A stretch of 64,000 bases of DNA from a virus. This document shows positions 1-14,417 of the stretch, piece after piece. The stretch is from UHGV virus genome UHGV-0174779; one strand, given 5' to 3'. Position 1 is the first letter of the stretch. Each line of letters begins with the position of its first letter. Below the pieces are notes generated by a model. It was not told the DNA's origin. It ran no database searches and was given only the letters and a program-made list of their open reading frames with translations. Both the position numbers and the translations under genes were made by a program.

Positions 1-923
1 CCTTTCGTGATAGGTACAATAGATTCAGTAGCAACTAAACCTAATCCTAGATTAGTACGAGCCGATTCTGGAGTAGTTGCCCCCGTACCACCCTGACTAA
101 CCAATATTGCAGAAGTCAACCCAGACAAAGAGGTAATATCAGAGTTAGCTCCACTTTTTGCTGCCCCGGTAATCTGGTCCACAGAGTAATCACCTGCTTG
201 TGGAATAACATCACCTGTACGGCTCTTGAAGCTGGATACTGAATTAAAAGAAATATCTCCTGTTTGTTCTGGACCTCCATTGATAGAAACAGATCTAATA
301 GAGGGTACAAGATTCGCAATGTTATCCATTGAAGTGCGGTATAAACCCCCATCTGTTGAGTCAACATAGAACCCATAATCTTCCGAATCAGGAACCCCTA
401 TAGCAACAGATCCTATATCAGAAATAGTTCCGTCTGTGCCGTCTCGCCCGGGAGTCCCTTCTGGAATACCAAAAGAGAATTGACCTGTCTCATTATCATA
501 ACTACCGGTTGCTAAACTGCCCGGAGGGAGCAGAGATACCTGAACAGTCATGTTAGATATGATATCAAGCTGATCCAGCACTTTCTGTGTTGCTTCTTTT
601 GAAAGCTCTGTAGCTGCATTTGTGTTGTCAATAGCTTGTCCTGTAGACTGAATAAGTCCTAATAAGACTTGATTCTGATCTTCAAAATCTGCCTTAAGTT
701 GCTTAATATCTTCTTCAAGCAGACGGCCTTGGGCATAGAGCCGCTCTACTTCCGAGAGAATGTCTTCCACAGAGTTGTATTTAGTTTGAGACAAGAGTGC
801 CCAATATTTAGCATCAGCTGCATATTCTGCTGCTTGTTTATAGGCTCCGATAGAACCTTCAGTAGCACCAAATTGGCCTACGTTATTGATTGCATCGGGT
901 GCTGAATTATTATAACTGATCAT
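1..923 (-). CDS. Tail fibre protein, N-terminal part (partial; gene continues beyond window start)
   Basis: Uninterrupted minus-strand frame from ATG (rc of 921-923), preceded by AAGGAG, to the window edge. Translation MISYNNSAPDAINNVGQFGATEG... contains collagen-like GTPGRDGTDGT. ORF track missed it because there is no stop in the window. Confidence 0.6.
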   Translation of the reverse strand, partial: MISYNNSAPDAINNVGQFGATEGSIGAYKQAAEYAADAKYWALLSQTKYNSVEDILSEVERLYAQGRLLEEDIKQLKADFEDQNQVLLGLIQSTGQAIDNTNAATELSKEATQKVLDQLDIISNMTVQVSLLPPGSLATGSYDNETGQFSFGIPEGTPGRDGTDGTISDIGSVAIGVPDSEDYGFYVDSTDGGLYRTSMDNIANLVPSIRSVSINGGPEQTGDISFNSVSSFKSRTGDVIPQAGDYSVDQITGAAKSGANSDITSLSGLTSAILVSQGGTGATTPESARTNLGLGLVATESIVPITK

Positions 924-8342: not shown

Positions 8343-9884
8343 TTAGTAGCTCTGATTCCATCTGCTTACGTTTGCCTCATACAAAGAAGCGCTTCCGTAG
8401 CTAACATCATGCTTAGAGCGACCACGATGTGTAACAGAGCACGCTGAATAGCGCATTGCATCCATTAAGTCATCATGTTCTTTAATAATCTTACCAACCT
8501 TACGGTGATATCTAGCTTTCTCTTCGAATAGCTTAGCGTTAGCGGCTGTGTTAAAGATTTTAAAGCGTCCACTCATCATTCTTTCACGGATATCTGTGAT
8601 TCCCGGTTCTACAAAGAAGTTCTTTTTACCATCCATTCCAATTTTGTTGTAGAAGGTATCACTCTGTACGTTAACTCCTGCATTCTTATAGAATTGAGCA
8701 ACAGATGAACCACTACCTTTCTCAATATTGTCCGCATCATGCGGTAGGATGACAGGAATCCACTGACCACGACCATTAATAGCTGGAGCATGATACACTG
8801 GAGTAAAGCCACCTTCTTTATATGAGTCGTAAACATAGATAGTATCCGTGTTTGCGTCGTAAGCTGTCCAAACAGCAGCAGTTGGGTGATCAATACCAAT
8901 ATCAATTGCACAGACACGTTTCCACGTATCAGGAATTTCGAATGGTTCACATTTAATTGTGTCATCCGATACATCGTAAATCAAACCACTTCCTAACAAT
9001 GGCATACCTTTTGAACGCATCTCTAATTGCCACGCTGGAATACCTTCAGTCATATCTTTTATATCTTGGTCAGTGATATGTCCACCTAGGTCTGCATGAG
9101 CATCCCACCAAGAAGCATTCTGGAAATATAGAGAACCTGTGTTCTCATCTCCTTCACCTTTCATAAATTTATCTACCAGTTCAGTTAAACCGTTCTCTGG
9201 TGTAGCTGTAATTGTAACTAGACCTTTAGTTGTGAGTGTACGTGTGACGCACTGTGCGAATATAGCCATAGACTCGTATGGATCTTCTTCGTCTAACCAA
9301 ATGTAATCAACTGTTGCACCCATCAATGTGTGTTCACCCTGTTGGGTTGAACGGAATTCTAATGTACTTAAACCGTCAAACTCTCCTCTCTCATTTTGAT
9401 GTTTGATTTGTACGATTTGAAGTTTGTTACCATCTCGTTCTATCGTATCAATGACGATAGCATCACGAGGAATGACACCTGTCCCTAATAAATTTGTATC
9501 CTTTCCGATAGGTGTACCAAACAATTCCTTTTGCAATACTTTCCTTGTGGAATCCCCTGTAATACCAACTGCCCATGCTAAGATAGGTCTTTTAAATTTA
9601 TATCCTGTCCACCAAGTTGGGTAGCGACCTGTGACATGACAAGCAAACTCGTATGCCTCGCTATAAGATTTACCAACACGGTTCGCTGCACACAAGAATC
9701 TAAAGCGATGCTTCAATCCTGCTGCATAAAATTTCTTTTGGAAGTCATACGCCTTGAAAGACAAAATCCTATTATACTTCCTCCATTGGTCACGCTCTTT
9801 CAACATATTCAATAGTGCTTTCTTTTCATCTACACTAAGGTTGTTACCAGTTAGAGCTTCATAAATTTGTTTATCTAATGACAT
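8343..9884 (-). CDS. Terminase large subunit
   Basis: 513 aa; ATPase Walker A-like AANRVGKS, Walker B-like DYIWLDEED, C-terminal nuclease region CAIDIGIDHPTAAV. Confidence 0.85.
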   Translation of the reverse strand: MSLDKQIYEALTGNNLSVDEKKALLNMLKERDQWRKYNRILSFKAYDFQKKFYAAGLKHRFRFLCAANRVGKSYSEAYEFACHVTGRYPTWWTGYKFKRPILAWAVGITGDSTRKVLQKELFGTPIGKDTNLLGTGVIPRDAIVIDTIERDGNKLQIVQIKHQNERGEFDGLSTLEFRSTQQGEHTLMGATVDYIWLDEEDPYESMAIFAQCVTRTLTTKGLVTITATPENGLTELVDKFMKGEGDENTGSLYFQNASWWDAHADLGGHITDQDIKDMTEGIPAWQLEMRSKGMPLLGSGLIYDVSDDTIKCEPFEIPDTWKRVCAIDIGIDHPTAAVWTAYDANTDTIYVYDSYKEGGFTPVYHAPAINGRGQWIPVILPHDADNIEKGSGSSVAQFYKNAGVNVQSDTFYNKIGMDGKKNFFVEPGITDIRERMMSGRFKIFNTAANAKLFEEKARYHRKVGKIIKEHDDLMDAMRYSACSVTHRGRSKHDVSYGSASLYEANVSRWNQSY

Positions 9885-9953: not shown

Positions 9954-10427
9954 TTAACTCTCGTCCGCTTCCTCCCCCTTTTCAGCGTCCTCAGAGTTGT
10001 CTTCTTCTGGAGGCATAACGTCGATACCAAGTGCTCCAGTCAAGAAGTCCTTGATTTGTGCATTCAGTGAATCTTCGTTGATTACATTCTCTTCCTCAAT
10101 CTTAACTTCAACAGAGGCCGCCTTAGGATATACCAGATCTGCAACTTTTGATGCAGCCTTGAATCTAAGATCAGGTGGAATATTGGGATCTTCGTAAATT
10201 TGAATTAACACTTCATCAGGAGACAAATGACTTGCAGCAACACGGTCCAACATTAATTGTGTCAGCTTACCTCTACTACCTTTGGGTCGTCCGAATTTAT
10301 TTCCCTTTTGAAACTTCCCATTGCTTGGGTTCATACCACGGCCTTCAAGTTCTTCCGTTACTCCGGGTAATCTTCCTGTAATCTCAGCTACCTGTGCAGG
10401 CGTGAGTTCTCCGTTTTCTCCAAACAT
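9954..10427 (-). CDS. Terminase small subunit (putative)
   Basis: 157 aa immediately upstream of large subunit; N-terminal basic motif KFGRPKGSRGKLT, acidic C-terminus; AAGGAG RBS. Confidence 0.5.
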   Translation of the reverse strand: MFGENGELTPAQVAEITGRLPGVTEELEGRGMNPSNGKFQKGNKFGRPKGSRGKLTQLMLDRVAASHLSPDEVLIQIYEDPNIPPDLRFKAASKVADLVYPKAASVEVKIEEENVINEDSLNAQIKDFLTGALGIDVMPPEEDNSEDAEKGEEADES

Positions 10428-10453
10428 TTTATACTCCTTCTACATTATCAACA

Positions 10454-10888: not shown

Positions 10889-11116
10889 TTAATATTCCTT
10901 ATAAGTGTGTGGTTTGATAGTGGTGAACGCTCGGAAAAATAACCATCCTAGGCTACTAACTTCCATCGTTGCATCAAATTCTTCATCGTCATCTAAGTCA
11001 ACCAGACGACCAATGCATTCTAATTCTTCAGGGGATATCTTAACAAAGGCACAAGTCTCTGTTCTGAACCGTGGAATCACCTCTGATAAAAAGTCTAATA
11101 TTAAATTCATGATCAA
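10889..11116 (-). CDS. Hypothetical protein
   Basis: 75 aa ORF, start overlaps stop of upstream gene (ATGA). Confidence 0.35.
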   Translation of the reverse strand: MIMNLILDFLSEVIPRFRTETCAFVKISPEELECIGRLVDLDDDEEFDATMEVSSLGWLFFRAFTTIKPHTYKEY

Positions 11117-11469
11117 TCTCCATAATCTAATTTAACCAACCGTCCGCCTAGGTATCCATAATTTTCTGGCTTAAGGTCTGACAGGTAAAATTCTTTAGGA
11201 AGGGAGCCTTTCAAGGTGTGAAGCTCTGCCATCCACAATCCTCTGTGCTTAACCACCTTACACCTCTTCATTATTACTAAGAAACCAAACTTATCAGAGA
11301 AGACTACAGGACAAAGGTTGGGGTCTTTCATCTCAGAGAAATGTCTCTCTTGTAGGTTAGCAAGAATCCCTTTTAAGAAAAGCTTCCAAGATTTAAAAGT
11401 AGGAATCTTGATAGCATAACCTCTGAACAATATAACTGACCTAGTACAACCTCTTAAATCCAATCTCAT
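11113..11469 (-). CDS. Small protein with protein-kinase-like catalytic motifs
   Basis: 118 aa; GYAIKIP (VAIK-like), LQERHF, FLVIMKRC (hinge-like), DLKPEN (catalytic loop), KLDYG (DFG-like) in kinase-like order and spacing. Confidence 0.4.
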   Translation of the reverse strand: MRLDLRGCTRSVILFRGYAIKIPTFKSWKLFLKGILANLQERHFSEMKDPNLCPVVFSDKFGFLVIMKRCKVVKHRGLWMAELHTLKGSLPKEFYLSDLKPENYGYLGGRLVKLDYGD

Positions 11470-11576
11470 AATTCATCTCCCTTCTTTATTCCTAATAAGT
11501 CAGCGGCTATGTAACCAAACACAACAACAATAGGAACAGTGACAAAAAGAATTAAACCCAACAGTAACCATCCCAT
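11466..11576 (-). CDS. Small membrane protein (36 aa)
   Basis: MGWLLLGLILFVTVPIVVVFGYIAADLLGIKKGDEL, GAGGA RBS, stop overlaps next start; below ORF-track size cut-off. Confidence 0.3.
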   Translation of the reverse strand: MGWLLLGLILFVTVPIVVVFGYIAADLLGIKKGDEL

Positions 11577-11624
11577 ACTTTTGTCCTCTGAGTAAAAAAA
11601 AATATAAAGGGCACATCATAAGAC

Positions 11625-12413
11625 CTACCCGTAAAGGCCACCTCACATTAACACCCGTGAGTATACCTGTATTCCTTTTCGTAGTCTTCTTCAGAGAAGC
11701 TACCATATTCATCTTCAGTCATACATCCCTCTGATAAAAGTTAAAACATAAAGGGGACGTCATGTTAAGGCACTATCACATTAAGGCCATGTCACGTTAA
11801 GGCTACTTCATGTGCAGTATCCAATCCCGTAATTAAACCCTCCATAGTTATATATAAGAGTTTAAAATCCTGATTTGACCGAGTGGGGCTAGCCGCTTCC
11901 CGCGCGTTTCCTAAAAAGGGGGAGTCCTCATTTAAAAAAGGGTTATTGGCAATGCCTTTACACCTCCTTCCACGTTCCAACCTTTCCCCGTGCCTACTCC
12001 CCGTTATTCTTTCCCCGTGTATACTACCCAATACATTACCTACCCGTTTATTTAGTTCCCCTTTAAAGAGTGGATGAGAGGCTAGTCTTCCACTGTACCA
12101 ATAGATTGAGGCGATATAATGCCCATGAGTAATAGTCACAAGCCCCCATAGTTTGAATGTAAATGATTCTAAATGTAATGATTATGAGTGCAATAATGAT
12201 GTATGTATTAATTAAGTGGATGATTGTATTTCTTTTAATAATTTCTTTTATTCCTTTCTTTTTTCAGCGTTCTGTTGGTCTTTTTCTTTTATGAGTTGAT
12301 GATTATTTAAGTGGTATATTACTACCGCACTATCTAGCTACCTTTCCCCGTGGTCTGTCCTGCGGTTGTATGTCCCCGTCCTATATAGATAGTAGAAATA
12401 GTTTACCCGTGGG
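11625..12413 (+). repeat. Cluster of eight same-strand CCCGT(G) repeats
   Basis: tacccgt/acccgtg/tttccccgtg at about 11627, 11653, 11985, 11999, 12013, 12042, 12345, 12374 and 12405, all on the plus strand in the divergent control region. Confidence 0.5.
11758..11805 (+). repeat. Three tandem 16-bp direct repeats (TCAYRTTAAGGC-N4)
   Basis: tcatGTTAAGGcacta / tcacaTTAAGGccatg / tcacGTTAAGGctact, perfect 16-nt periodicity. Confidence 0.5.
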
Positions 12414-12640
12414 CTTGCTTTCCTTATCAGGTAGTGGTAAATTGAATCTATCGATTGAGTGGTTGGAGTAGTAGAGATGATAATCTTAGTAATGATGGTA
12501 ATAGCTGTAGTGCTTCCTTTACTTGCTCTGATTGTTAGTGAAGTGGTTGAGTTGTTCACTGACAAAAGATTAGAAGTAGTTGATAAACCAAGCAAGTTTG
12601 ATGGTGCTCAGTTTAGTAGTAAGAAAGTTGAAATTAATTG

Positions 12641-12669
12641 TTGACATGTTAGGTAGTAAGAAATATATT
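12641..12669 (+). promoter_or_regulatory. Sigma70-type promoter (TTGACA-N17-TATATT)
   Basis: Consensus -35 at 12641-12646 and -10 at 12664-12669, about 40 nt upstream of gene 12711. Confidence 0.5.
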
Positions 12670-12710
12670 TATCTCATTGAAACGAAGCATACCAACTAAA
12701 GGAATCAATC

Positions 12711-13190
12711 ATGAATAAGGCAAACTTTGTAATCGGTGCTCTGGTATTAACCTTCGGTAGCATGGCTATCGCTGACAAGATTGCTAGTGCTCCAGTTGCT
12801 CAAGCTGCTGTAGTCATGAGTGATGCTGCTGACACCTTCGTTAGCAACGCCCCTAAAGGTTGGCTGGTTTGTAAAGGATTGGATTCAGATAATGTCACTA
12901 CGTTGATGAAAGTTAAATTATCTAACGTAACCAATCGTGGCATGGTATTGTCTACTCGTACACTTGACAACCAGAATAATGAGGATATTCTGCTTTCCCG
13001 TAAAGACAATGACCCAGAGTTGATTACTTTTGGCGATGTGCAGACTATTAAAGGTTCTAAAGTTGTGACTAATCTGGTAACATATGGCACAATGCAAGAA
13101 ACCATGTTAGCCACCTCTGTCTACAGTGGGGAAGATAACAGTATTTGGACTTTCCGCTTTCAGATGGGTGATTGTGTTAAAGCAAAATAA
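12711..13190 (+). CDS. Secreted early protein (signal peptide)
   Basis: 159 aa; N-terminal MNKANFVIGALVLTFGSMAIA signal-like segment; AAGGAA RBS. Confidence 0.6.
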   Translation: MNKANFVIGALVLTFGSMAIADKIASAPVAQAAVVMSDAADTFVSNAPKGWLVCKGLDSDNVTTLMKVKLSNVTNRGMVLSTRTLDNQNNEDILLSRKDNDPELITFGDVQTIKGSKVVTNLVTYGTMQETMLATSVYSGEDNSIWTFRFQMGDCVKAK

Positions 13191-13193
13191 TAG

Positions 13194-13222
13194 TTGACAC
13201 GGTTATAGATTGGCAGTATTGT
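13194..13222 (+). promoter_or_regulatory. Sigma70-type promoter (TTGACA-N17-TATTGT)
   Basis: Same architecture and shared leader (ctaaaggaatcaa) as the promoter at 12641. Confidence 0.5.
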
Positions 13223-13957: not shown

Positions 13958-14051
13958 TTATTTTTGGCGGTGCTTATTCGTTGTTACAGTGGCGTTATTT
14001 GTCTCTGATATGCTTTATTCTTACGTTTTATAACTATAGGTGACTATTATC

Positions 14052-14417
14052 ATGGGTGTTATCAAGTTTGTAGTGAAAGTGATTGTAGGCTTCTTTCTGG
14101 TTGTTCTTCTGTTAGGTGTCCTGCTGTCGTCTATTGGTAGTGTAAAGGCTGCAACGTTCACGCCTGATACTATCGAAGGCTTGCAATGCACCTATCTTAT
14201 AGAAGATTATGAAACTGGTAAAAAGTCACCTAAGGTTATTATTTTACATGTAGAAGATTTTGAGAGTGTCATAACCTACGACAAGTCTATCCACATGACT
14301 AACGAAACCACTGGTAAGCAAATTACGGTCGATCACTTGCTGCGCTCGTCGTTGACGCTCTTTGATGAATCTATGAACGAAATAAAATCCGGTAATGGTC
14401 AGTGTGTAAATCCATAG
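14052..14417 (+). CDS. Membrane protein (N-terminal transmembrane helix)
   Basis: ORF 14040..14417; ATG 14052 with AGGTGA 9 nt upstream; hydrophobic VIVGFFLVVLLLGVLLSSIG. Confidence 0.5.
   Translation: MGVIKFVVKVIVGFFLVVLLLGVLLSSIGSVKAATFTPDTIEGLQCTYLIEDYETGKKSPKVIILHVEDFESVITYDKSIHMTNETTGKQITVDHLLRSSLTLFDESMNEIKSGNGQCVNP

Follow-up and report, generated by a model that had tools for sequence, protein, structure and literature searches.

Collapsed terminal repeat between two gene arms

The window, that is, the whole 64-kb stretch (64,000 nucleotides) analysed from the virus genome UHGV-0174779, is, as read from its sequence, that of a Kuravirus (phiEco32-like, Gordonclarkvirinae), a coliphage and podophage, in the reverse orientation with respect to phiEco32. 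This work concerns the region between the two gene arms of that window, where short repeats lie on one strand together with an AT-rich block and a single copy of the homolog of a direct terminal repeat (DTR). The identity of this area to records of phage collections is approximately 80-90%, with no identical record among them, and the phage belongs to Gordonclarkvirinae and not, like T7, to Autographiviridae. Leftward of the DTR are found the homolog of phiEco32 gp6, the large terminase gene and the portal-side genes, while rightward of it are found the homologs of the early genes of the phiEco32 right end. This agrees with a preliminary description of the locus, made from the letters alone, in which the region has leftward genes to its left and rightward genes to its right. 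The first real genes appear to be the one for a 36-residue membrane peptide (11466-11576, - strand) and a small open reading frame (ORF) that starts at 12477 (+ strand) and, for this reason, the approximately 900 bp between them would be non-coding. The minimum of the cumulative GC skew (guanine versus cytosine) is located at approximately 12000-12200, in the same place as the switch in gene orientation.

The phiEco32 record carries an identical 193-bp repeat at both ends, which was used as the DTR reference. For this phage, the ends of the DNA had been located through restriction analysis, primer walking and subcloning (Savalia et al. 2008, as cited in PMC9965538). The phiEco32 DTR (1-193) aligns over its full length with positions 12083-11891 of the window, with 87.8% identity and an E value of 2e-62. 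The same segment, 11891-12083, is reached by the left end of Paul, whose DTR (1-193) was predicted with PhageTerm and whose positions 1-234 align with 93.2% identity, and by the right end of YF01, with a DTR annotated from nanopore reads. The window DTR is thus 88-93% identical over its whole length to the DTRs of Kuravirus phages, with position 12083 corresponding to the left terminus of phiEco32 and Paul, and position 11891 to the right terminus. The alignment of the phiEco32 DTR to the window returned this single internal copy and no second one. Given the identity of the DTR and the synteny of its flanks, the region is, on the sequence, a concatemer junction of Kuravirus genome ends in which the terminal repeat has been collapsed to one copy. 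Repeat collapse is frequent in short-read assemblies of DTR phages (PMC10438801). In the virion, segment 11891-12083 would stand at both ends of the DNA, and the left and right flanks would be approximately 77 kb apart.

The locus shares with the DTRs of phiEco32, Paul, YF01 and SU10 the 193-bp length, the flanking genes and a core at DTR positions of approximately 130-170, and differs from them in the single internal copy, due to a permuted or collapsed assembly, and in the loss of the segment that carries phiEco32 'gene 1'. A packaging site or genome termini had been proposed here in the preliminary description, and this is supported by the homology to mapped DTRs, although the collapsed terminal repeat had gone unnoticed. 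The idea of one divergent control region, put forward in the same place, is true of the concatemeric or circularly assembled form, whereas in the virion its halves would lie at opposite ends of the genome.

Two families of repeats on one strand

Between 11628 and 12410, the sequence CCCGT (family 1) has 10 copies on the + strand and none on the - strand, a count higher than the at least eight copies in one orientation noticed previously. The copies start at 11628, 11654, 11826, 11987, 12000, 12014, 12043, 12347, 12375 and 12406, and half of them (5/10) read CCCGTG. The total in the window is near chance (46 observed versus 42 expected), and it is the clustering that is exceptional: a Poisson model predicts 0.23 copies for 800 nt of one strand, which gives a P of approximately 1e-13, and the largest same-strand cluster reached 5 copies in 200 dinucleotide-preserving shuffles versus the 10 found here. 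Elsewhere in the window the largest cluster has 3 copies, and the lack of a comparable one fits a single-site signal.

With respect to the DTR, the copies are distributed as 2+1 on the late arm, 4 inside the repeat and 3 on the early arm (3/4/3). On the late-gene side, which is that of the phiEco32 left end, two composite units in which a family-2 element (AAAGGS-N4-TCAY) is joined to CCCGT occupy 11606..11659 (+ strand), and a lone copy at 11826..11830 (+) is found at the edge of the approximately 150-nt deletion in the phiEco32 'gene 1' region. Within the DTR, four repeats of the form YMCCCGTK (11985..12047, +; at 11987, 12000, 12014 and 12043) are spaced by 13, 14 and 29 bp, and CCCGT is present at these four positions in 12-13 of 13 aligned genomes. 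On the early-gene side, which is that of the phiEco32 right end, three repeats (12345..12411, +; at 12347, 12375 and 12406) are spaced by 28 and 31 bp and lie 260-325 bp past the DTR. Matching triplets or quartets with a spacing of 27-31 bp are found in TH42, EP335, Bas89 and the loci L030 and L031.

The family-2 repeats, described by the pattern WAAGGS-N4-TCAY (WAAGGSNNNNTCAY), are confined to the late arm. The six matches in the window, all on the + strand, start at 11606, 11633, 11750, 11766, 11782 and 11798, for an expected count of 1.19, and 0/100 shuffles reached 6. Four of them follow each other in exact 16-bp phase (11750..11811, +), and Tandem Repeats Finder reports at 11765-11803 a period of 16 with 2.4 copies and 82% matches. 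The phased array of 16-bp repeats noted in the preliminary description is therefore real, with its count of three corrected to four phased repeats plus two more. Relatives have 3-6 same-strand copies at the equivalent place, and the copy number varies among them by whole units, seen as unit-sized indels in the alignment, with strand and location constant.

The conservation of the repeats was evaluated in 14 related junctions, compared for the CCCGT layout, and in a 13-genome alignment, used for column conservation. A scan of IMG/VR for further loci returned 5, of which at least 4 were copies of GenBank phage genomes. The layout of 2+1, 4 and 3 copies is found in 13/14 junctions, with small gains and losses and a constant strand, the exception being TH42. 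In the alignment, the major allele reaches a frequency of 98% in the motif columns, compared with 90% in the other columns of the DTR and 85% in the flanks. Logan contigs with gp6 69-88% identical keep the same-strand arrays and the exact core, while their flanks can barely be aligned. The spacings between neighbouring copies across eight lineages are of 12-18 or 26-32 bp, with almost none between, and give a period of 14.5-15 bp with a resultant length of 0.70; the eight lineages are related, so that this value is suggestive and does not amount to a formal test. Comparison with relatives had been indicated in the preliminary description as the way in which its claim could fail, and what was found is that the repeats are conserved and the termini map to the region, so there is no refutation.

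The arrays of TH42 and ECBP2 consist mostly of TACCCAT mixed with TACCCGT and, given this mixture of CCCAT and CCCGT, the site is better written CCCRT. In TH42, ACCCAT is found 10:0 by strand. In the sublineage of these two phages TACCCAT stands at the equivalent positions while gp6 is approximately 91-93% identical, and the apparent switch between CCCGT and CCCAT probably reflects drift of a degenerate CCCRT site. Same-strand CCCRT arrays are retained in EP335 (Nieuwekanaalvirus), Bas89, KBNP1711, TH42 and ECBP2, and in EP335, Bas89 and KBNP1711 the core is likewise exact amid DNA that scarcely aligns.

The junction of the Cronobacter phage GAP52 (NC_019402), taken as outgroup and assembled by joining the two ends of its record, is not homologous, has no such array and carries other repeats, its gp6 being 49% identical. 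A non-coding stretch of approximately 2.4 kb upstream of its gp6-like gene holds four same-strand copies of CTTATCCACAGG and a fifth that is inverted, a repeat in which TTATCCACA is a perfect DnaA box. ATTGAGG is found there 5 times, and approximately 6 scattered copies of CCCGT lie on the other strand from the one used in Kuravirus. This suggests that GAP52, which belongs to the related family Grimontviridae, has a DnaA-box origin near its genome 'ends'.

Repeats of this type could also have no function at all, being either relics of slippage and duplication or a by-product of overlapping small ORFs. The variation of the 16-bp unit in copy number among relatives is what slippage would leave, and ORFs do overlap the repeats, as is the case of a 115-residue ORF at 11792-12139, which runs across the DTR, and of phiEco32 'gene 1' (296..496), which reads through the 16-bp repeats. 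Nonetheless, positions, strand and motif core are kept where the flanks have diverged, none of the spacings (13, 14, 16 and 29 bp) is divisible by three, and the overlapping ORFs are not conserved, so that this explanation was already disfavoured and is considered highly improbable. The approximately 150 nt that carry gene 1 are deleted in the window (at 11830/11841), and in most relatives its ORF is truncated by a stop after 19 codons; on this sequence evidence gene 1 is probably not a real gene. A coding reading was rejected for the ORFs 11792-12139, 11883-12077, 12163-12294 and 11500-11712 on the grounds of lack of conservation, repeat spacings not divisible by three or the absence of a family match, and a 43-residue ORF in the AT-rich block is not conserved either. 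The first annotated coding sequence (CDS) of Paul (NC_070992), at 104..415, has its start within the 193-bp DTR and is likely an over-call, comparable to the 115-residue ORF. A 24-residue acidic peptide ORF (11648-11722, -) is located in a segment common only to phiEco32 and MN03, and the 36-residue hydrophobic peptide (11466-11576, -) has a good Shine-Dalgarno site and a stop that overlaps the start of a 118-residue gene.

Cut sites, conserved core and AT-rich block

Both boundaries of the DTR coincide with the sequence GGCT|AG. At the right terminus it occupies 11887..11892 (+), with the cut between 11890 and 11891, and belongs in the window to the palindrome GGCTAGCC; at the left terminus it occupies 12080..12085 (+), with the cut between 12083 and 12084, at 193 bp from the other boundary. 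In the alignment GGCT|AG is kept at both boundaries in the relatives, and the metagenomic locus L028 has two copies of GGCTAG exactly 193 bp apart. Given that the hexamer has 18 copies in the genome, it cannot by itself be the whole cut signal. A longer arrangement, GGCTAG-N23-AAGGGGGAGTCCTCA, is found without mismatch in 14 loci that were fetched, distant metagenomic contigs from Logan among them. The tetramer CTAG is rare in the whole window (136 observed versus approximately 238 expected from base composition), yet one copy falls exactly on each DTR boundary, at 11889 and 12082.

The most conserved part of the DTR is a core at 11910..11958 (TAAAAAGGGGGAGTCCTCA ... TTGGCAATGCCTTTAC), made of invariant alignment columns and exact in 14 loci, which corresponds to the conservation at DTR positions of approximately 130-170 described in the YF01 paper (PMC9965538). 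Within it, positions 11913-11925 read on the - strand as ACTCCCCCTTTTT, an inverted and degenerate element similar to family 1 (CCCRT-like) that is part of inverted repeat I8. On the late-gene side the DTR is adjoined by a near-invariant block of 31 nt (11860..11890, GTTTAAAATYCTGATTTGACCGAGTGGGGCT) defined from the alignment, which may be the context of the cut site, a leftward sigma-70 promoter, or both. This stretch is given in Table S2 of the SU10 paper as a 'potential sigma-70 promoter' upstream of CDS1, just past the DTR boundary.

The geometry of these elements allows a tentative and rather unlikely proposal to be made, in which the junction would act as a 'two-nick ruler' and a terminase complex would nick opposite strands exactly 193 bp apart. 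The complex would assemble on the arrays phased at 15/30 bp, the direct CCCRT copies would point toward the cut at 12083/12084, and the inverted CCCRT-like element of the core (ACTCCCCCTT, - strand) would point toward the cut at 11890/11891. Both elements would then show the same face to the palindromic CT|AG, at distances of 36 and 26 bp that are one helical turn apart. If true, this would provide a concrete and testable mechanism by which phages with DTRs of exact length form and duplicate their ends.

To the right of the DTR the DNA becomes rich in A and T, as the preliminary description had rightly pointed out: the GC content of 12100-12299 is 0.29 versus 0.42 for the whole window. The AT-rich block proper (12150..12300, GC of approximately 0.29) includes a sub-block that is invariant (12183-12220) and a T-tract that varies (12221-12262). 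Both of the 13-mer repeats previously noted in it, at 12155-12167 and 12170-12182, are present, with only the first being common to most relatives.

Direct repeats next to an AT-rich segment are also found in iteron origins, and the CCCRT copies could be iterons bound by an initiator of the phage or of the host, flanking an AT-rich unwinding element at 12150-12300 near the genome end. The disposition of four repeats (11987-12043), a block with 29% GC and three repeats (12347-12406) would fit such an origin, and the cumulative GC-skew minimum falls on it. Support also comes from the four same-strand perfect DnaA boxes at the GAP52 junction, and from T7, where the secondary origins phiOL and phiOR are annotated within a few hundred bp of the repeat. 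Nonetheless, no DnaA box (TTWTNCACA) is found in 11400-12700 and no match to a replication initiator among the neighbouring ORFs; the skew minimum is not independent evidence, given that it coincides with the switch in gene orientation; and the T-tract is variable in sequence, with indels. In comparison with iteron origins, the repeats are here spread over approximately 800 bp and across the genome terminus, with no DnaA boxes and no identified initiator. For these reasons a replication origin is regarded as an unlikely explanation of the arrays.

Downstream of the AT-rich block, three promoter-like sites follow on the + strand. The first, an extended -10-like element (TGGTATATT, 12312..12320), was read directly from the sequence and was not picked up by the two-hexamer promoter scan; it is a candidate for an end-proximal rightward early promoter, its promoter function being putative, and 15 loci of close relatives carry TTAAGTGGWATAWT unchanged. 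The second (TTGCTT-17-TAAATT, 12415..12443) precedes the first small early ORF (ATG at 12477), which matches phrog_7482 with an E value of 2e-12, and is conserved in the relatives that have this ORF. The third, a strong TTGACA-17-TATATT promoter at 12641-12669, corresponds to the early promoter of SU10. As far as sequence allows, the first early transcription most likely starts here, from the genome end, driven by the AT-rich block and these sites.

The repeats themselves could then be operators of an early or middle regulator, or a roadblock, with the AT-rich block resembling an UP element. This reading has in its favour that the three right-hand copies fall between the sites at 12312-12320 and 12415-12443, upstream of the first early ORF, that the strong promoter matching that of SU10 follows, and that just past the other DTR boundary a sigma-70 promoter is predicted in the SU10 paper. 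It has against it that promoter-like sites are no more numerous than in shuffles (3 observed versus 4.3 expected), that the motif is absent at the other early, middle and late promoters of the window, and that, for the copies in the DTR and those of the late arm, no promoter on which they might act is apparent. The arrays are, furthermore, conserved more deeply than the adjacent promoter-like blocks, given that neither the extended -10 site nor the invariant 12183-12220 block has an exact copy in distant relatives that keep the arrays. A promoter of the gp36-dependent middle/late type is not favoured either, since the gp36 consensus tAATGTAtA has no conserved match in the region: the sole match with at most one mismatch (12030-12038, -) is replaced by TAATGAATA in phiEco32 and most relatives, and conservation is also lacking for AATGTA on the + strand, at 12154 and 12172. 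Transcription control is for these reasons judged improbable, and slightly more so than an origin.

A hairpin resembling a terminator at 12348-12365 was discarded, being weak and about as frequent as in shuffles, and an Rfam search of 11000-13200 returned nothing credible.

A candidate platform for the packaging machinery

It is established that the segment matches mapped DTRs, and that the repeats are conserved, biased to one strand and quantised in their spacing. Given that the arrays are unique, straddle both cuts, run in one direction, are regularly spaced and are deeply conserved, a platform for the packaging machinery is the most economical reading of the junction with its collapsed 193-bp repeat. 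This reading, in which both the binder and the packaging role are deduced from the sequence, is given a probability slightly above one half (approximately 0.55). According to it, virion DNA would be cut at GGCT|AG on either side of the repeat, which would be duplicated in a packaging process of the T7 type. The CCCRT and WAAGGS-N4-TCAY arrays would form a multi-site binding platform that marks the phage concatemer, sets the direction of packaging and positions both cuts, and the leading candidate for the protein that binds them would be the small terminase similar to gp6.

The homolog of phiEco32 gp6 (9954..10427, -), a putative small terminase subunit, is encoded immediately upstream of the gene for the large terminase (8343-9884, -). 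When a profile built from 21 gp6 sequences was compared with the PDB, the top two matches were the small terminases of NV1 (7joq, E of 0.002) and of PaP3 (6w7t, E of 0.15), and the homolog was annotated as putative small terminase by the YF01 authors. No function was assigned to it by Pfam or PHROG. Its AlphaFold2 model has a pLDDT (predicted local distance difference test) of 65, and Foldseek gave no significant match with this low-confidence model. Directly upstream of the gene, TAATGTAGA is found at 10439-10447 (-) and matches the gp36-type late promoter of SU10 between CDS3 and CDS4.

T7, for which both ends were fetched, offers the closest architecture. At its junction CCTAAAG occurs 13 times on one strand and 0 on the other, with a period of 13 nt, and is distributed with respect to the 160-bp repeat as 2 copies before, 3 inside and 8 after; host promoters are found just inside one end, with phiOL and phiOR close by. 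The arrays are reportedly those named SRL and SRR by Dunn and Studier in 1983. Both systems therefore have a one-strand motif before, inside and after the terminal repeat, end-proximal early promoters of the host type and packaging with a DTR of exact length. They differ in that the motif, the phage family and the terminase proteins are unrelated, and in that the Kuravirus junction combines two families of motifs with a period of approximately 15/30 bp, which makes the comparison an analogy only.

Multi-site regions recognized by a small terminase are also known from other phages, the hexamer arrays of P1 pac being one example. The R sites of lambda cosB and the pacL/pacR sites of SPP1 are of the same kind (PMC7672466). 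Shared with these systems are the short repeats on both sides of the cleavage, the unique genomic site and a gene nearby for a small terminase, which is putative in Kuravirus. In contrast, those systems package by cos or headful mechanisms and have a single cut region, whereas Kuravirus has two exact cuts 193 bp apart and a duplicated repeat, and its arrays are candidate sites for which no co-variation with gp6 was detected.

Several observations weigh against a packaging platform. The termini of this phage are placed by homology to mapped DTRs, and the AT-rich block and promoters stand beside the arrays in a geometry that would fit an origin or a regulatory region equally well. The assignment of gp6 as small terminase is weak (E of 0.002, with an uninformative fold search). 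In the comparison of CCCGT-type with TACCCAT-type phages no co-variation of gp6 with the motif variant was found, and the protein is nearly identical between the CCCGT phage KBNP1711 and the mostly-TACCCAT phage ECBP2. Furthermore, relatives without the N-terminal segment of gp6, which resembles a helix-turn-helix, still hold the arrays. To our knowledge the T7 arrays have no proven function and, for this reason, the analogy with T7 carries the architecture and not the mechanism. A scan for co-variation over whole genomes was dropped, given that ECBP2 and KBNP1711 are only approximately 83% identical overall and the comparison was too noisy.

The CCCRT and WAAGGS-N4-TCAY arrays, their quantised spacing and the shared GGCT|AG boundaries are undescribed in the literature searched, which did not extend to the original phiEco32 papers (Savalia 2008, Pavlova 2012). 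The Kuravirus papers that were covered mention the conserved core of the DTR, and neither the arrays nor the GGCT|AG boundaries. The DTR itself was already known, and what is added is a junction decorated with repeats in the style of T7 in another phage lineage. This second and independent example of a T7-style one-strand repeat architecture suggests that the architecture is functional and not an oddity of T7. The matter is relevant given that packaging with DTRs of exact length (T3/T7, T5) is not as well understood as packaging of the cos or headful kind, as stated in a 2026 review of packaging motors (PMC13595956). Kuravirus phages are widely isolated therapeutic coliphages whose genomes are often deposited permuted and with the repeat collapsed, as in the window. 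The conserved elements at both cut sites can serve as markers to re-orient such assemblies, and as explicit targets for the study of the packaging signal.

Two further observations were made in the window. An early ORF at 14040-14417 (+) matches phrog_13168 'terminase' and is the homolog of phi32_125, which is likewise annotated as 'terminase'; the strongly hydrophobic first helix of its product and its location among early genes were noted, and the label looks like an inherited misannotation. The segment 46000-48400 contains the 2-kb bin with the lowest GC content of the window (0.377), several exact matches to TAATGTATA on both strands and three + strand copies of CCCGT, which is the chance level, and is probably the boundary of the middle and early promoter regions.

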